From Caedibacter taeniospiralis (GTDB taxonomy: Bacteria > Pseudomonadota > Gammaproteobacteria > Francisellales > Francisellaceae), in contig NZ_PGGB02000003.1 in the NCBI RefSeq assembly GCF_002803295.2, forward strand, positions 30,210 to 62,209: a DNA stretch of 32,000 nucleotides, written 5' to 3'. Shown here one piece after another: positions 15,002 to 22,494 of this stretch. How positions within the stretch are numbered: position 1 is the first letter of the stretch; each line of letters starts with the position of its first letter. Below the pieces are notes generated by a model. It saw nothing but the letters and a program-made list of their open reading frames with translations, was not told the DNA's origin and searched no databases. Made by a program: the position numbers and the translations under genes.

Positions 15002-16198
15002 ATGTTACACATCAAAGCCTCAGCTTCGGCAAAGGTTATTTTTATCTTTATTATTATGGTAACGTCAATGCTTGGCATTTTTGTTTCCGACATCTATGTC
15101 CCTTCATTGCCAAGCATTAGCGAGGACTTCGGCACAGGGACACATTTACTGGCTTTTAGTGTCACTTACTACTTTATTGTCTTTGCCTCTTCACAGCTGA
15201 TCTATGGACCCTTATCTGAGCGTTTTGGTCGGCGTAAAATTTTCTTATCAGGACTTGGCATAAGTATTATCGGCACACTTATTACCGTATTTAGTGTGAA
15301 CTTTACAATGCTCATGACTGGGCGGACCTTTGAGGCTATTGGCATGGCAGCACCCATGTCGCTAGGACGCGTGATTTTACGTGACGTGATTCCAGAGAAA
15401 ATCAAGTATGCCCGCTTTATGTCGTTTATGGGCATTGGCACATTAATGGCTCCTGTTATTGCACCAATTTTTGGCGCTTTTTTGGCACACGCTTATCACT
15501 GGCGTGCTGATTTTATCTTTATCCTAACGTTGAGCTTGATCTGCTATATTGGCGCTTACTTGTATCTCATTGAAACACTTCTTAACCCCAAGAAGCGTCT
15601 TTCTGCCAAACTATCGTTGCAAACCTACGCCTGGGTCATTAAAAACAAAGCCTTCATTAAAAATACGATCATCTCAAGTACCGTCATGGGTGCTATTATC
15701 GCCTACTTATCGCTGAGCGCTTTTCTATTTCAGCACTATTTCGGTTTAAGCGAAATCGATTATGCGATCATCTTTGGTCTCGGTGAGGCATTTATTGCCG
15801 TTGGCATGTTTGCCAATGCCATGGCACTAAAATACATTTCGATTGAAAGTGCACAAGTTTTAGCCGTTTTGCTATTTTTACTTTCAGGTATTTTAATCAC
15901 TATTCAGGCGGTATTTTTTACTCAAAATCTTCTGTTTATTACGTTTGCCGTGATTATTTTTAACTTTGCAGCAGGGGTTGTTTTTCCAACCAGCAGCACC
16001 TTAGCCATCGTCACCTTCAAAGCACGCTTAGGAGCTGTTGGCAGTTTATATGGTTGCATTAGCATGCTTGCTGCAGGATTAATCAGTGGTATTGCCCTTT
16101 CAATACCACTAACTCCCAATCTGTTAATTGCACTACTTATCTTAGTGATGTCACTAGTGGCTGTCTTTGTTCTTTTTGCTATGCCTGACAAAGCATGA
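15002..16198 (+). CDS. MFS drug:H+ antiporter (Bcr/CflA-like)
   Basis: About 12 predicted TM segments. MFS motif A is GPLSERFGRRK. I prefer the ATG at 15002 to the TTG at 14969 used in the ORF track; the start is uncertain. Confidence 0.8.
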   Translation: MLHIKASASAKVIFIFIIMVTSMLGIFVSDIYVPSLPSISEDFGTGTHLLAFSVTYYFIVFASSQLIYGPLSERFGRRKIFLSGLGISIIGTLITVFSVNFTMLMTGRTFEAIGMAAPMSLGRVILRDVIPEKIKYARFMSFMGIGTLMAPVIAPIFGAFLAHAYHWRADFIFILTLSLICYIGAYLYLIETLLNPKKRLSAKLSLQTYAWVIKNKAFIKNTIISSTVMGAIIAYLSLSAFLFQHYFGLSEIDYAIIFGLGEAFIAVGMFANAMALKYISIESAQVLAVLLFLLSGILITIQAVFFTQNLLFITFAVIIFNFAAGVVFPTSSTLAIVTFKARLGAVGSLYGCISMLAAGLISGIALSIPLTPNLLIALLILVMSLVAVFVLFAMPDKA

Positions 16199-16729
16199 AG
16201 CAAGGTGGTCATTCACCATCCCCGTGGCTTGCATAAACGCATAACAAATAGTCTTTCCCACAAATGTAAACCCTTGAGATTTTATCCATTTACTCATCAA
16301 CATCGATTCATGGATAAAGGCAGGAACTTTATCGGTTGTAGAATAGATGACTTGAGTTTTTGGCGCAAACTGCCACAACGCATCAACCATTGACAGAGTT
16401 TGAGACAGCTTAAGCCACTGTCTTGCATTATTAATCACGCTATTCATTTTTAACCGATTGCGAATAAGCCCAGGATCTTGCATCAGCCTTTCGACATCAT
16501 GTTCAGTCATTTGCACGACTTTAGCGATTTCAAAATTATAAAAAGAGTTTCTATAGTTTTCTCGACGTTTTAAAATCGTCTGCCAGCTTAAGCCTGCTTG
16601 CGCACCTTCAAGACATAAAAACTCAAATAAGCGCTGCTCATCATAAACCGCCATACCCCATTCATAATCGTGGTAGGCTTGCATTTGTTTATTTGAGTCA
16701 GCCCAAGGACAACGTTGTTGTGCCATCAT
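16154..16729 (-). CDS. tag: DNA-3-methyladenine glycosylase I
   Basis: 191 aa. Motifs: CPW, YHDYEWG, CLEGAQAGLSWQTILKRRENYR, MVNDHL..C. Collinear with E. coli Tag as I recall it. Confidence 0.9.
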   Translation of the reverse strand: MMAQQRCPWADSNKQMQAYHDYEWGMAVYDEQRLFEFLCLEGAQAGLSWQTILKRRENYRNSFYNFEIAKVVQMTEHDVERLMQDPGLIRNRLKMNSVINNARQWLKLSQTLSMVDALWQFAPKTQVIYSTTDKVPAFIHESMLMSKWIKSQGFTFVGKTICYAFMQATGMVNDHLASCFVRHSKKNKDSH

Positions 16730-17370
16730 TTTTGCGTCCCTTGTAGTGCTAAACGAATCAGACTCTCCACATTATTTGCCTCGGTTTTAACTTGATGTAC
16801 ATATTTCTCCGCTTCTTTGCGTTTGTAACCCAATGCTTCAAGCGCATCCACTGCCTGATGCACCATTGAGTTTGCATGATAACCATCACTTGCTGATGGC
16901 ATAAGATTTTGCTCATTTTGCGTGCTATGTACCCTATTTTGTGTTAGTGCATCTAGCTCAAGCATAAGTTTTGTTATCTTATCTTTCATCTCAATGACAA
17001 TGCGCTCAGCTGTTTTTTTACCCACCCCTGGAATGGTACACAAAAGCCCATGATCCTGTGCTTCAATACATTGAACAAAGGTTATTCCATCCATACCAGA
17101 GAGAATAGCCAGTGACATTTTAGCACCAATACCATTGATCTTAATGAGCTCCTGAAACAATCGTCGATCTGATTTTGTGGCAAAGCCGTAAAGCTGTTGC
17201 ACATCCTCACGCACGATAAAATGTGTATGCAATACGACTTCTTGCCCAATATCTCCCAGTTTATAAATTGAGCTCATCGGCACCCATATTTCGTAGCCAA
17301 CGCCACCTGCTTCAACTAATATCAACGGAGGCTGTTTTTCTATAAGCTCTCCTCTTACGCGTCCAATCAT
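16726..17370 (-). CDS. ruvA: Holliday junction branch migration complex subunit RuvA
   Basis: 214 aa. [28 protein letters not shown], and HhH motifs [14 protein letters not shown] and [13 protein letters not shown]. Confidence 0.95.
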
Positions 17371-17882
17371 CTTAAACGTCCTCGTACTATTTTTGTCGCC
17401 CCTGGAATAAACTGAAGACTATTGCGACTGTGAAAATGACAAATCGCAATCGCTAAAGCGTCAGCAGCATCCGCTTGGGGTTTACTGCTTAATTGCAAAA
17501 AGGATTGTACCATGTGCTGCACTTGAAATTTTGTCGCGTTACCATTACCGACTACGGATTGTTTAACCTGCTTTGCGGAGTATTCGTGTACCATTAAATC
17601 CTGATTTGCCAAGGCACAGATCGCTACCCCTCGCGCCTGTCCCAATTTCAAAGCAGCACCTGGATTCTGAAACATAAAGATCTGCTCAATTGCCGCTTCA
17701 GTTGGCTGATAGGCACGAACGATTTCTTCAACACCATCCTGAATCTGCTTTAAGCGCTCAGCAGTGGTTTCTTTGGTAATTCGAATACAACCACTAGTCA
17801 CATACAGGCATTCCCTCGCTTCTGCCTTGATAACTCCAAAACCTGTGATTCTTGATCCTGGGTCAATGCCTAAAATAATCAT
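17367..17882 (-). CDS. ruvC: crossover junction endodeoxyribonuclease RuvC
   Basis: Canonical N-terminus [18 protein letters not shown]. The ORF track's 15 extra N-terminal codons are rejected. The ATG at 17882-17880 forms an ATGA overlap with the upstream stop. Confidence 0.95.
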
Positions 17883-18517
17883 GCAAGTTTTTCCAATTGC
17901 ACAATCCAAGCGTTGAACACATGGCACTCCTGACAGATTGTATCCAAACCAATATCCAGGCTAATTAAGGAACCATGAAGCACCTTATCATAGGAGCTGC
18001 ACACTTTTAAAAGTCGTTTTGAAGGTGCGGTTTGCACACCATCGTTGATATGTTCTGGCGTTATAAACTCAGAACTAATTTTAGTCAATTCACTGACCAC
18101 ACCTTTATCATCAAACCAGTTGGCAAAAACTTGAGGCGCACTAAACAATAGTCCTTCAAATTCATGGGCAGTCAAGTTTGCAATAAAGTTGGGTTGAGCA
18201 ATATCATTCTGAAATACCTTACTGGCGGCTTTAACATTGCCAATTGAATCTGCTGTTTTGGTAAATGGCGGAAAGTCTTTGGGCAAAGCGTAATAGTCAA
18301 TGAACGTGGTGATATAAGCTTTGCTGTCTTCTTTACATTTTTGCAAAACCTGCTGTTTCACTTTACCATAACTAACTACACCCCCCTTACCTTGAGATGA
18401 TGTGCGTAAGACAATGGGGTTGATAACAATATTCAAACGTTCAAAATATGGTTGCAGTAGCTCACGAACAAAGCTTTCTTCCGTTTGCCCTTCGCAGAAA
18501 ATATATACTCGAGTCAT
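17879..18517 (-). CDS. DUF4276-like protein (possible TOPRIM-like nuclease partner of the upstream ATPase)
   Basis: 212 aa from the ATG at 18517 ([21 protein letters not shown]...). It has the N-terminal strand plus invariant-Glu pattern I associate with DUF4276, a later HEFEGLLFS, and a size in the range I recall for the family. There are ATGA overlaps at both ends (18514-18517 with the ATPase stop, 17879-17882 with the ruvC start). The family call is from recall, not a search. Confidence 0.6.
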
Positions 18518-19593
18518 TTTGATGGTCTCCCACCAAGAATGTTTTTCTGCCACAGCTCACCCAGTGTATATTCATCCAGCCACGCCTTCAACTCGACTCT
18601 ATTTAAGCGATGTAAGTTAGTCACACCTTCGCCGCGATCAGCAACAATTACATCTTCAACCTCGAATTCATTCAACAAATCAGGAGATTGAGTAGAAATA
18701 ATAATTTGTTGGGTTTTGGATGCAGAGCGCAGTAAACCTGCCAACAAATGAATAGCATAGGGGTGTAATCCCAGCTCTGGCTCATCAATCAATATTGTAC
18801 ATGGTTTAAACTCTTCAGGCTGCAACAAAACTGTAGCCAAGCATATAAAACGCAAGGTGCCATCAGACAAAATACTTGCTTTAAAAGGGATATCCTGAGC
18901 TTTTTCAACCCATTCGAGTTCAATCTGATCTTTGGCATCAGGTAATGGTCGTAAATTAAAATCACCAAAAAATGGAGCCACCAAGCGAACAACTTTAACT
19001 ATGCGCTGATAATACTCAAGATGGTGGTTTTTCAGGTGATATAAAAATGCCGCGAGATTGCGAGCATCTGGACGCAAATAGGCATTGTCATTAATACCAT
19101 GGGGCTGCTTTACCAATGCACTATCGCTGGTATCGTGAAAATGGTATGCCCGCCAGTTTTTTATGACAGGGAGTGTGTAGTTTTTTATAAGTGATTTATG
19201 AGATTCCACTTGGCTTTCAAAATGTCCATAACCTACGCTGGTATCGCCTCTCATATTCCACCATAGGTCTTCACTTGCAAACATCATGCGGTTGTCGGTG
19301 GTAGGCTCTAGCATAAACTTGTAACCATTGTTACCAAAATACAGTTCAGCACTAAAACGTTCAGTCACCTTGCGACCAAAGTGCAGCATGGCATCAGGAC
19401 CACCTTGCTTACTAACATACAATTGCAATTTGCCTTCAAGCATTTGTGGAAGCAGCTTAAAAAAACTAATGAAATTCGATTTGCCTGCACCGTTTGGTCC
19501 AATCAAAACATTCAACTCATGCAGCTCTAAATCGCATTGTTTAATGGATTTGAAGCCTTTTAAAACAATGCGTGACAATTGGTCACATTTCAC
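18514..19593 (-). CDS. SMC/RecF-like ABC-type ATPase (AAA_21/AAA_15 class), soluble
   Basis: 359 aa. Motifs: Walker A GPNGAGKS (nt 19477-19500), signature-like LSDGTLRF, Walker B ILIDEPELGLHP, STQSPDLL. GTG start at 19593 preceded by GGAGG (19601-19605) at 7-nt spacing. Confidence 0.8.
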   Translation of the reverse strand: MKCDQLSRIVLKGFKSIKQCDLELHELNVLIGPNGAGKSNFISFFKLLPQMLEGKLQLYVSKQGGPDAMLHFGRKVTERFSAELYFGNNGYKFMLEPTTDNRMMFASEDLWWNMRGDTSVGYGHFESQVESHKSLIKNYTLPVIKNWRAYHFHDTSDSALVKQPHGINDNAYLRPDARNLAAFLYHLKNHHLEYYQRIVKVVRLVAPFFGDFNLRPLPDAKDQIELEWVEKAQDIPFKASILSDGTLRFICLATVLLQPEEFKPCTILIDEPELGLHPYAIHLLAGLLRSASKTQQIIISTQSPDLLNEFEVEDVIVADRGEGVTNLHRLNRVELKAWLDEYTLGELWQKNILGGRPSK

Positions 19594-19619
19594 TCTTTAA
19601 CCTCCATCCATTTCCAAAT

Positions 19620-20372
19620 TCACGAATTCAATGCTTCCATGACACTTTCGTCAAACTCAACATTAGTGTACACACTTTGCACATCATCCAAATCCTCTAA
19701 ACGATCGATCATGTTCATAACCTTTTGAGCAACTTCCACATCATCAATATTCGTTTTCACATCTGCATCCATAGTGACTTCTGCTGAAGCGGGTTTTAAA
19801 CCCTTTGCTATTAATGCGTCATTGACCTCAGAAAAACCAGCTGGGTCGGTAATCACATCAATCGTACCATCTGCAAAGCTCACCACATCTTCAGCCCCTG
19901 CCTCGAGTGCCACCTCCATGACAAGATCTTCACTTAAGCCTGCATCAAAACTAATAATACCCTTCTTATTAAACATATAAGAAACGGAGCCGTCTGTCCC
20001 TAAATTGCCACCTGCTTTGGTAAAAGCATGACGCACCTCAGCCACCGTACGATTTCGATTATCCGTCATGCAATCGACAATAAAGGCCACGCCTGCTGGA
20101 CCATAACCTTCGTAACGAATCTCCTCTAAATTGCCTCCTTCTTCGCCACCAGCCCCTTTTTTAATCGCACGCTCAATCGTATCTTTCGTCATATTGTTAG
20201 ACAGTGCTGTCGCAATTGCCGCGCGTAGCCGTGGGTTGGAATCCTTGTCACCCCCTCCCAAGCCTGCAGATATCGTGATCTCACGAATCAACTTGGTGAA
20301 GATTTTTCCACGCTTAGCATCTTCTCTTGCTTTTCTATGCTTAATGTTTGCCCACTTACTGTGACCTGCCAT
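19620..20372 (-). CDS. yebC: YebC/PmpR-family DNA-binding transcriptional regulator / translation factor
   Basis: 250 aa. [32 protein letters not shown] is the canonical family N-terminus. Confidence 0.95.
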
Positions 20373-20408
20373 TTTTAAACCTCTTTCAAAGACCCTTAAA
20401 CGGCAGCA

Positions 20409-20417
20409 ATTGTATCA
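20409..20417 (-). promoter_or_regulatory. candidate extended -10 element (TGATACAAT on the minus strand) for the yebC operon
   Basis: The reverse complement of ATTGTATCA lies 37 nt upstream of the yebC ATG. No convincing -35 is present. Weak evidence. Confidence 0.25.
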
Positions 20418-20512
20418 TAAAGCCCCATAAAACACCGAGGGGATTTTTGCGAACTAAGCACTCCTCTACTACGCTTAAATCACCAAGGAAACCCTGGGAA
20501 AGGATTCAACCC

Positions 20513-22024
20513 ATGAAGCTAGATAGTCTAATTCAGCCGATAAAAGTCATGCGCTTGCGGTATCTCCCACTCCTGATGATTTATTTTGCCTACGGTTGTA
20601 GCGTTTTTTCTGGCATTGGTGAATCTTTTTTTGTCAAAGAACACTTGAATTTATCCGCAGAAAGTCTCATTGTGATTGGGGTTTGGCTAAGTCTGCCATG
20701 GAATATTAAGATGGTATTTGGGCAGTTTGTCGACAGCCTCACCCTATTTGGATCGCAGCGCAAGGCTTACGTTTATTTGGCTGCTGTTTTAATGGCAAGC
20801 GGTTCTTTGCTTATGACTGGATTGGCTAGTCGCTGGAGTTTTGTGGTTGTGTTAGCACCTGATAATGTCATTTTTTTTATTTCATCCTTACTAACCGTTT
20901 TGGGTGTGGTATTACAGGATGTGGTTGCTGATGCCATGAGCGTTGAAGTCGTTGAGCGTGAAGGACGCTCACAACAAGACATTGATCAAGATCTTGCAAT
21001 GGTGCAACTCTTGGGACGTTTAAGCTTGAGTCTTGGAATGTTTCTTGTAGCGGGTTTAGGAGGCTGGCTTGCAGAGGTAATGAGTTATCAGAACCTTTTT
21101 CTACTTACCTTGAGTATCCCCTTGATTAGCATCACGGGTATTTTATTTATTCGTTTGGATAAGGTTCCTCGCAAGCCCATTAATAAAACCGTGCTTTTTG
21201 GTGGACTCTTGTATGCCGTCTTTATTATTGTCATAGGTCTTAGTGACCTTCCTTTAGCACAGGAAATCGCGTTTGTCGTGTCTTTAATTATTATCATTTA
21301 CCTGCTACGCGCGGTCACTAAAGAACTACCTCGCGATTTACTACGCGCCATTTTTGTTGCGGCCTTTATGATCTTCATCTTTCGCGCCTCTCCAACTGCT
21401 GGACCTGGTGCTCAATGGTTTATGATCGATGTGCTGGGATTTGATAAGGCTTTTTTTGGCACGTTATCACAGATTGGGGCTTTTATGTCCATTATTGGCA
21501 TGTGGTTTTTTGCCCGAGTGATTACGGAGAAATCGATCACCTCTGTGCTGTTGTCGCTGACGGTTGCAGGCTTTTTATTAGAGCTACCCCTCATCGCCCT
21601 ATATTACGGACTACATGAATGGACCATGGTTTACTTTGGTTTTGGCGCACGCACCATTGTACTGATTGATAGCGCAGTTGCCTCACCATTTGCCCAATTG
21701 GCGATGATTCCCATGCTAGCACTCATCGCACGCTACGCCCCAAAAGGCAATGCTGCTACCTGGTTTGCGCTGATGGCAAGCTTTATGAATTTAGCACTCA
21801 CTGCAGGGTCATTATTGAGTAAGTACTTAAATAAAGTCTTTGCTGTTTCACGTGAGGTCCTCGATCACACCACAAATACCGTCATCTCCTCTGCAAACTA
21901 TAGTGAGCTTGGCTCACTTTTAATTACCGTTTCAATCATTGGTTTATCTGCCCCTCTTGTAGGAATTTTGCTATACGCACGATTTTACCCAAAGGCAAAA
22001 AAACAAAAAAGACAAAATGGATAA
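20513..22024 (+). CDS. polytopic MFS-like transporter, tentatively folate/biopterin transporter (BT1) family
   Basis: 503 aa from the ATG at 20513 (AAAGGA SD 8 nt upstream), with about 12 hydrophobic segments. The 55 upstream codons in the ORF track overlap yebC and are rejected. The BT1 assignment is from recall of overall pattern only. Confidence 0.6.
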   Translation: MKLDSLIQPIKVMRLRYLPLLMIYFAYGCSVFSGIGESFFVKEHLNLSAESLIVIGVWLSLPWNIKMVFGQFVDSLTLFGSQRKAYVYLAAVLMASGSLLMTGLASRWSFVVVLAPDNVIFFISSLLTVLGVVLQDVVADAMSVEVVEREGRSQQDIDQDLAMVQLLGRLSLSLGMFLVAGLGGWLAEVMSYQNLFLLTLSIPLISITGILFIRLDKVPRKPINKTVLFGGLLYAVFIIVIGLSDLPLAQEIAFVVSLIIIIYLLRAVTKELPRDLLRAIFVAAFMIFIFRASPTAGPGAQWFMIDVLGFDKAFFGTLSQIGAFMSIIGMWFFARVITEKSITSVLLSLTVAGFLLELPLIALYYGLHEWTMVYFGFGARTIVLIDSAVASPFAQLAMIPMLALIARYAPKGNAATWFALMASFMNLALTAGSLLSKYLNKVFAVSREVLDHTTNTVISSANYSELGSLLITVSIIGLSAPLVGILLYARFYPKAKKQKRQNG

Positions 22025-22083: not shown

Positions 22084-22494
22084 GGGGGCGAATATGGCTT
22101 CGACGGGAATGTCAATGTCTTACGGTGCATGCCGAGGGTGTATCTGCCTCGTAAAACACGTTACATCGTCAGAATAACTGGCAAAAATAAAAAAGATCGC
22201 GTTGTAGCTAACGATGCAGCTTTCGCTGCTCGTAAAGCTGCTTAATCTAGCTTAATAACCTAGATACGCACGAACCGATAGTATTTGCTTGTGAATCTAT
22301 CTTATGTTCGTTCATATCCATCACAAGATCGCCAACGTGTCGGTCTAAACACTGCGGCTAAATTTTAAGACTCGCTTGAATTATGCCCTGATTTATCGGG
22401 CGGATTTGAGTCAAATATAATAGATAAGTCTAAGCATGTAGATCTGAAGATGGCGAGTTTGCGGACGCGGGTTCAACCCCCGCCGCCTCCACCA
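22084..22494 (+). ncRNA. ssrA: transfer-messenger RNA (tmRNA, SsrA)
   Basis: 5' GGGGGCGAATATGGCTTCGACGGG and 3' GCGGACGCGGGTTCAACCCCCGCCGCCTCCACCA, with acceptor stem GGGGGCG/CGCCUCC (one G-U pair) and a T-arm. The internal tag ORF ends ...GCT AAC GAT GCA GCT TTC GCT GCT CGT AAA GCT GCT TAA (stop 22243-22245). Confidence 0.95.

Follow-up and report, generated by a model that had tools for sequence, protein, structure and literature searches.

A HEC-01-type ATPase-DUF4276 cassette placed exactly at the yebC-ruvC overlap of the endosymbiont Caedibacter taeniospiralis

Introduction

In the 32-kb stretch of the Caedibacter taeniospiralis genome analyzed here (contig NZ_PGGB02000003.1; hereafter the window), two genes that code for a soluble ABC ATPase and a DUF4276 protein lie between yebC and ruvC. 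Is this pair a defense cassette that came to rest in a repair operon, or does it process DNA together with RuvABC? An earlier, sequence-only reading of the window had raised both possibilities. Our analysis indicates that the pair is most likely a horizontally acquired cassette of the HEC-01 type, a candidate anti-phage or anti-mobile-element system, which was joined precisely into the yebC-ruvC GTGA overlap in a Caedibacter ancestor. The gene pair itself is ordinary and adds nothing to the catalog of defense systems. What is new, and where the interest lies, is its placement: in an endosymbiont, the cassette was inserted into a housekeeping repair operon exactly, and in a way that preserves the overlap.

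C. taeniospiralis belongs to the family Fastidiosibacteraceae and is an obligate endosymbiont of Paramecium; the window ATPase shows 100% identity to a protein listed by NCBI under this species. Its genome (1.32 Mb, 41.3% GC) is reduced to less than half of the gene content found in its relatives; it keeps a type I-C CRISPR-Cas system as well as a prophage remnant.

Results

Filled and empty yebC-ruvC sites

The ruvC gene was found downstream of yebC on the same strand in 73 of 80 gammaproteobacterial yebC loci, as the sequence-only reading had assumed, and the cassette was present in none of the 80. Two close genera provided the empty site. Cysteiniphilum halobium (L179; YebC 89% identical, with a range of 89-90% in Cysteiniphilum) and Fastidiosibacter lacustris (82%) have the same local gene order as Caedibacter and are cassette-free, and in both genera yebC and ruvC overlap by GTGA. 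When the window was compared with C. halobium by blastn, the alignment ended exactly at the yebC stop and restarted at the ruvC start. The empty site reads TTCGTGATTATTTTAGG (also given as AATTCGTGATTATTTTAGGC), and the filled site reads TTCGTGA[ATTTGG...GCATGA]TTATTTTAGG or, in a longer form, AATTCGTGA[ATTTGGAAATGGATGGAGGTTAAAGA-GTG...GCATGA]TTATTTTAGGC. The proposal that the module had been inserted at a normally contiguous junction is thus borne out by the empty sites.

Caedibacter yebC is the same as that of the relatives up to the last codon. At the other end, ruvC starts with ATG in Caedibacter and with GTG in the relatives. The hexamer GCATGA, with which the cassette terminates, also ends the cassette in three of its relatives (L085, L089 and L097), and the ATG of ruvC therefore came in as part of the cassette, in place of the ancestral GTG. 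This ATG (17882-17880) lies inside the overlap with the DUF4276 stop, GCATGATTATTTTAGGC, and the encoded RuvC N-terminus, MIILGIDPG, is the same as in relatives. The ATPase gene starts with GTG, and a Shine-Dalgarno sequence, GGAGG, is located 8 nucleotides (nt) 5' of this codon.

The same arrangement was observed in four independent assemblies or samples at 99.4-100% identity, and placement of the cassette between yebC and ruvC is limited to this one species. Neither direct nor inverted repeats bracket the insert, and no integrase, transposase or other defense gene was found in the window. We regard the association with ruvC as an accident of insertion in a single lineage.

All operon genes from yebC to tag are read from the minus strand (Table 1). 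The sequence-only reading, which did not state the strand, was correct at the sequence level about the two open reading frames (ORFs), all motifs that it quoted and the ATGA overlap between the ATPase and DUF4276 genes; a second ATGA overlap, between DUF4276 and ruvC, had escaped it. With ATGA overlaps at every junction from the ATPase gene to tag, yebC, the ATPase gene, the DUF4276 gene, ruvC, ruvA and tag form one tightly coupled operon. No internal promoter or terminator above shuffled expectation was detected in the operon region.

Table 1. Features of the operon and the inserted cassette in the window
Feature	Position	Strand	Basis or remark
yebC, upstream flank	19620..20372	minus	Pfam YebC 2.4e-60
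Insert: 26-nt leader, ATPase gene and DUF4276 gene	17879..19619	minus	1,741 nt relative to the empty yebC/ruvC site
Leader, yebC stop to ATPase start	19594..19619	minus	26 nt, sequence read
ATPase gene, HEC-01A-type, 359 aa	18514..19593	minus	Pfam and PADLOC
STQS, ATPase residues 300-303	18688..18699	minus	Gln in all 36 aligned homologs
ATGA overlap, ATPase stop/DUF4276 start	18514..18517	minus	sequence
DUF4276 gene, HEC-01B-type, 212 aa	17879..18517	minus	Pfam and PADLOC
ATGA overlap, DUF4276 stop/ruvC start	17879..17882	minus	sequence
ruvC, 171 aa, downstream flank	17367..17882	minus	Pfam RuvC 4.3e-59
ruvA, ATGA overlap with ruvC	16726..17370	minus	Pfam
tag, 3-methyladenine glycosylase I, ATGA overlap with ruvA	16154..16729	minus	Pfam Adenine_glyco 2.8e-68

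Several other gammaproteobacterial yebC-ruvC gaps (L039 6744-7666, L072 2111-2742, L005 and L065) hold unrelated small genes, namely a gene for a 252-amino acid (aa) protein, an antisense 68-aa ORF that is PIN/VapC-like by eye, and ORFs of 123 and 129 aa. Thus, this junction occasionally takes other insertions. In Francisella sp. SYW-9 (L002 7405-8690) and Marinospirillum celere (L003 7362-8108), a membrane-protein gene (397 and 221 aa, respectively) is located between ruvC and ruvA.

Age and intactness of the cassette

The cassette has a GC content of 0.40-0.41 and a GC content at third codon positions (GC3) of 0.36-0.375, compared with a host GC3 of 0.39 +/- 0.03, whereas the closest cassette relatives have an overall GC of 47-53%. 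This host-like composition indicates that the acquisition is old. A recent landing was considered and rejected, since there is no compositional anomaly. Relative to the nearest relative, nonsynonymous differences per site (pN) were 0.11-0.16 and synonymous differences (pS) were 0.71-0.76, the latter being saturated. Departures at columns conserved in at least 90% of the family numbered 3 of 67 and 4 of 186 in the two window proteins (family medians, 2 and 6), and every family-invariant residue is kept in both. Judged by these features, both genes look functional. The four Caedibacter copies contain too few differences for an informative dN/dS.

The pair belongs to the HEC-01 family

Judged by its profile matches, the cassette is a member of HEC-01, which is already cataloged, and any PADLOC run would name it. 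The ATPase matched the HEC-01A model PDLC04175 almost end to end (3.5e-153; residues 1-357 of 359, model positions 1-362 of 363), and the DUF4276 protein matched the HEC-01B model PDLC04188 (6e-80; residues 1-211). HEC-01 (Hma-embedded candidate 1) was described as an ABC ATPase plus a TOPRIM protein inside Hma systems, with a metal site conserved relative to Burkholderia OLD (Payne et al., bioRxiv 10.1101/2024.01.29.577857). The label "uncharacterized", given to the pair in the sequence-only reading, could therefore not be kept, as HEC-01 was both described and phage-tested in that 2024 study. Similarly, the view that no ATPase-DUF4276 system had been characterized experimentally does not hold, because a HEC-01 representative and mad3/mad4 had been assayed.

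The ATPase has the motif set of a soluble ABC ATPase (Walker A, signature, Walker B and D-loop), with GPNGAGKS at residues 32-39, LSDGTLRF at 242-249, ILIDEPELGLHP at 267-278 and STQSPDLL at 300-307. In an alignment of 36 homologs, G32, K38 and S39 of Walker A, S243-D244-G245 of the signature, D270-E271 of Walker B, and H277 were invariant. It matched Pfam AAA_21 (2.6e-28; 100.4 bits, cutoff 27) and AAA_15 (6.9e-17; 62.6 bits, cutoff 32.1), and these families and DUF4276 for the partner had been expected from sequence; additional matches were to SMC_N and DUF2813. The protein has no coiled-coil insert and resembles SMC and Rad50 heads. Its AlphaFold model (predicted local distance difference test score, pLDDT, 81) gave as top Foldseek matches PtuA (from Septu and retron systems), Thermus OLD, and the heads of RecN, SMC and Rad50, each at an identity of 13-17% (RecN head, 13-15%). 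A profile search of PDB sequences retrieved OLD, GajA, PtuA, AriA and SMC, with values of 6.1e-9 for Ts OLD (6p74) and ~1e-6 for GajA.

Other assignments of the ATPase were tried and rejected. RecF orthology was dismissed at 33 bits against a cutoff of 172 bits, scores for SMC and transporter equivalogs were far under the model cutoffs, and RecN was matched by the fold of its head alone. This agrees with the initial view that the protein is not of the RecF, RecN or transporter type.

The DUF4276 protein covered the entire Pfam model PF14103 (5e-54; 183.9 bits, cutoff 30.2; model positions 1-192 of 192). The motifs quoted for it, the 17-residue N-terminus (residues 1-17) and HEFEGLLF (118-125), are present, and in a 49-sequence alignment E9, G10, T12, E13, D74, Y76, E119 and E121 were invariant. 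The structural model (pLDDT 93, predicted TM score 0.89) had as its three best PDB fold matches the Toprim-containing C-terminal region of Xanthomonas OLD (E values of 4.8e-4 to 1.1e-3, TM scores of 0.34-0.44, the best being 6njv). In this model E9 directly follows strand 1 (residues 2-8) and D74 is at the end of strand 3, which are canonical Toprim positions. On this structural basis, the protein is predicted to be a Toprim-like nuclease. A Toprim-like effector fold had been suspected from sequence, and two papers agree with it: that of Payne et al., and the Menshen paper, which named DUF4276 a new Toprim member with Mad4 as a homolog. The PARIS paper counted AbiL and MADS3-4 as ABC ATPase plus TOPRIM systems and had DUF4276 among its domain annotations. 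Pfam searches at E<=10 across 49 family members gave only stray matches, to OLD-like_TOPRIM (2 members, 0.11) and RloB (1 member, 0.047), and DUF4435 was matched by none of the 49 even at this threshold.

Relatives of the cassette and their gene contexts

The homolog set consisted of 84 loci, 80 of which had enough upstream DNA for the ATPase to be assessed. An ATPase homolog was directly upstream of the DUF4276 gene in 80 of these 80 loci, with a gap of 0-93 nt, so the neighborhood association expected from the window is strict. The 4-nt ATGA overlap between the two genes was also present in several of the homolog loci read. DUF4276 homologs were 55-74% identical to the window protein and ATPase homologs 68-85%. 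They occur in Nitrincola, Halomonas, Desulfobotulus, Desulfurivibrio, several cyanobacteria, Cyclonatronum and many metagenomes, and thus in Gammaproteobacteria, Desulfobacterota, Cyanobacteria and Balneolota. Such a patchy distribution is a typical sign of horizontal transfer.

The family is typically embedded within other operons. The two nearest relatives (73% and 71%) and the Desulfurivibrio copy are located between pglX and pglZ of BREX systems (type I BREX in the nearest two), and 7 of the 84 loci have BREX genes around them. More distant relatives (38-42%) in L171 (5255-9907), L119 and L161 overlap by 4 nt with both neighbors, hsdM and hsdS of type I restriction-modification (R-M) systems; the hsdM-hsdS gap is the classic position of a 'restriction-linked ORF'. 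One relative is found in an island with R-M, Kiwa and HipA genes, and another adjoins an integrase. Some precede unrelated genes, e.g., those for BrkB or a cupin. The genes yebC, ruvC and ruvA were near none of the 84 loci.

The cassette was also detected on 13 plasmids, including plasmids of Piscirickettsia salmonis. Two small plasmids of this organism (NZ_CP039232.1 and NZ_CP039246.1) carry a HEC-01-type pair whose DUF4276 protein is 48% identical to that of the window. Conceivably, the plasmids of P. salmonis, which is intracellular and also belongs to Thiotrichales, were a route of transfer. A phage origin was rejected, as no relative was found in IMG/VR or among 50,697 phage records.

In the closest named relative, Nitrincola nitratireducens (L085 6926-8004), the ATPase is divided into ORFs of 102 and 257 aa within an otherwise complete BREX locus. 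This split is due to either a frameshift or a sequencing error.

Comparison with known ATPase-Toprim systems

The cassette resembles HEC-01 in that both models are matched end to end, an ABC ATPase precedes a small TOPRIM-like protein, and the pair is embedded in another operon. It differs in the host operon, which is here the housekeeping repair operon yebC-ruvCA of an obligate endosymbiont and not Hma, BREX or R-M. A 2026 BREX survey reported dyads of an OLD-like ABC protein and a TOPRIM protein within BREX in many taxa and proposed that they are backup effectors.

Kinship with MADS, the methylation-associated defense system of Pseudomonas aeruginosa, is distant. Mad3 and Mad4 likewise combine an ABC ATPase with a DUF4276-type Toprim partner, and deletion of either mad3 or mad4 reduces MADS defense. 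However, the ATPase scored 112.9 bits with the NCBIfam MAD3 model (cutoff 420) and 7e-26 with PADLOC mad3, and the DUF4276 protein had no PADLOC mad4 match. Within the window there are no mad6, mad7, mad8, methyltransferase or other mad genes, and the remaining genes are all housekeeping.

PARIS also consists of two genes, with the ABC ATPase AriA and the separate Toprim effector AriB, and is a likely model for a scaffold that releases a nuclease. The AriA models were weak on the window ATPase (8.1e-26 and 1.8e-18), and the partner is a DUF4276 protein of 212 aa rather than a DUF4435 protein of ~300 aa. OLD and GajA share with the pair an ABC ATPase from the same broad clade, and the catalytic C-terminal region of OLD is the best structural match of the DUF4276 protein; in these proteins, however, ATPase and Toprim are fused, whereas here they are split, DxD is changed to D-x-Y, and a GajB-like helicase is missing. 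Finally, AbiL (AbiLi/AbiLii) and RloA/RloB pair an ATPase with a small Toprim-like partner, often between hsdM and hsdS. AbiLi was matched at 2.2e-21 and AbiLii at only 0.031, RloB was hit by 1 of 49 family members at 0.047, and the partner family is different. The placement of the pair among soluble, SMC/OLD-like ABC ATPases with a DUF4276 partner, as made in the sequence-only reading, is supported by these comparisons.

Discussion

Proposed origin and mode of action

How might this arrangement have arisen? In the ancestor, a 1,741-nt cassette with its own ribosome-binding leader would have been joined exactly at the 4-nt GTGA overlap, and its terminal ATGA would have taken the place of GTGA; as a result, ruvC, ruvA and tag would still belong to one coupled operon. 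The yebC promoter presumably drives the cassette. By analogy with PARIS, Gabija, OLD and Septu, the ATPase may dimerize on ATP and act as sensor and scaffold, which would keep the co-translated Toprim nuclease inactive. An invader-derived cue might then free or activate the nuclease, and cleavage of DNA or tRNA would stop the infection. We infer complex formation, trigger, substrate and activity in Caedibacter from these other systems.

Several observations weigh against a defense function of this kind. In the study of Payne et al., HEC-01 protected against none of the phages tested. In a cold-seep study one HEC-01 representative protected E. coli B from at least one of T4, T5 and T7, but this positive report is a single screen with one representative and three phages. 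Biochemical activity has been reported for no DUF4276 protein, and a profile search found no solved structure that is related to DUF4276 by sequence. The best OLD fold match is weak (TM 0.44, E 4.8e-4). In addition, the Toprim DxD motif is not present in the DUF4276 protein, which has D74-Y75-Y76, with D74 and Y76 invariant and D-F-Y as the family consensus. With D-x-Y in place of DxD in this clade, the metal site departs from the canonical one, and the carboxylates absent from DxD may come from E119 and E121. The ATPase, in turn, appears to lack the H-loop His that ABC ATPases normally have. In the model Q302 (STQSP), invariant in the 36 homologs, appears to occupy its position directly after the strand at 296-301, and with Gln instead of His the hydrolysis properties may differ. 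Both the D-x-Y motif and the H-loop Gln are traits of the whole family. Finally, the published Caedibacter transcriptome paper and its supplement do not mention the locus, and obligate intracellular life with a 1.32-Mb genome may mean low phage pressure.

Alternative explanations

The neighborhood of the cassette raises the possibility of a repair accessory, i.e., an ATP-driven Toprim nuclease that joins RuvC and RuvA in processing DNA ends or branched DNA. The sequence-only reading had offered this as its alternative. Such a function would fit the ATGA coupling to ruvC, ruvA and tag, all repair genes, as well as the presence of RecN and Rad50 among the structural matches of the ATPase and the survival of an intact cassette in a reduced genome. 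However, identity to RecN and Rad50 is just ~15%. Neither ruvC, ruvA nor yebC is near any of the 84 homolog loci, the cassette occurs at none of the 80 gammaproteobacterial yebC loci and is absent from the two closest genera, and its relatives reside in BREX, R-M, defense islands and plasmids. Nor have the window proteins moved unusually far from the family consensus, which would have pointed to a changed function. With its placement confined to one species, we regard a role alongside RuvABC as very improbable. It is scarcely more plausible that the pair is an addiction module, similar to a toxin-antitoxin system, that stabilizes its locus rather than senses invaders. The Pfam description of AAA_21, which is named after AbiEii toxins, and the occurrence on plasmids, including those of the intracellular pathogen P. 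salmonis, would be consistent with this possibility. But the ATPase matches HEC-01A, OLD, GajA, PtuA and AriA and not a nucleotidyltransferase-type AbiEii toxin, no antitoxin-like DNA-binding domain was found with Pfam, and a position in the chromosomal core needs no stabilizing.

A selfish or neutral passenger deserves somewhat more attention, although it too seems unlikely. The cassette would then be currently without benefit and persist through its embedding, and its proteins may be made and yet be useless inside the host cell. The seamless insertion provides the start codon of ruvC, and since ruvC now depends on this ATG and on coupled translation, no deletion short of a perfectly precise one would be tolerated. 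The inactivity of HEC-01 in its first assay and the obligate endosymbiotic life of the host point in the same direction, as does the finding that strain differences in the ATPase are mostly non-synonymous (2 of 3, 2 of 2 and 3 of 4), the neighboring genes being alike in this respect. Against it, the ORFs are intact in four samples, none of the invariant catalytic residues has been lost, and changes at conserved columns are not in excess. The full amelioration of GC implies a long residence without decay in a genome reduced by more than half relative to its relatives, and the CRISPR-Cas system and prophage remnant suggest that pressure from invaders exists. Thus, we favor a horizontally acquired HEC-01-type defense cassette. 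Its persistence in an intact and ameliorated form in an endosymbiont suggests either that it is of real selective use against phages, plasmids or R-body-associated elements or that it is locked in through the ruvC ATG.

Embedding in operons

Since the filled site can be aligned with empty ones nucleotide by nucleotide, the locus is a concrete example of how embedded defense genes may arise. It also indicates that the embedding of defense-type cassettes is not confined to defense operons and that a core repair operon can host one. Located there, the cassette would be missed by guilt-by-association searches for defense genes.

Are HEC-01-type cassettes adapted for seamless insertion at the stop/start overlaps of operons? 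At the 5' end, (A/G)TGA is found at the start of the ATPase gene in 43 of 54 assessable loci. At the 3' end, cassettes of the close clade often terminate in ATGA behind a Shine-Dalgarno-like GGAGG, and would therefore carry a ready-made translational coupler for any downstream gene; in 11 homolog loci and the window, the downstream gene does start inside the terminal (A/G)TGA. The idea that every cassette ends in ATGA was rejected, because this end was found in only about one quarter of the 84 loci, most of them from the closest clade. Overlaps of 4 nt are the commonest type in compact operons. The operon-suited ends are thus a hint, weakened by the commonness of such overlaps and by mostly non-ATGA ends, and we think that such an adaptation is rather doubtful. 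If it were real, either as dedicated overlap-targeted insertion or as strong selection for operon-compatible ends, it would account for embedding in BREX, R-M and Hma operons, and the Caedibacter site would be the first at which such an event can be traced nucleotide by nucleotide through comparison with empty sites, and also the first in a housekeeping operon. The cassette would also be hard to lose, because the start codon of the downstream gene belongs to it.

Other features of the locus

The tag gene is a second seamless addition to this operon that is specific to Caedibacter, as it is not at that place in Fastidiosibacter (L175) or Cysteiniphilum (L179). Its 3' end overlaps a convergent MFS gene by 45 nt. 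The pairing of ruvA with ruvB is known from E. coli; ruvB is not downstream of ruvA in the window or in either of these two relatives, and the family thus lacks this pairing.

On the other side of the operon, a gene for transfer-messenger RNA (22084-22494, plus strand; tag peptide GKNKKDRVVANDAAFAARKAA) is located 1.7 kb from yebC and 2.5 kb from the insert, with no island or integrase attached. Between the window and strain L082 there are 36 differences, and 23 of them fall in the BT1-family transporter gene (20348-22024, plus strand) beside yebC. This gene is broken into ORFs of 372 and 139 aa in L082 (4398-5910), which suggests that it has become a pseudogene in some strains.

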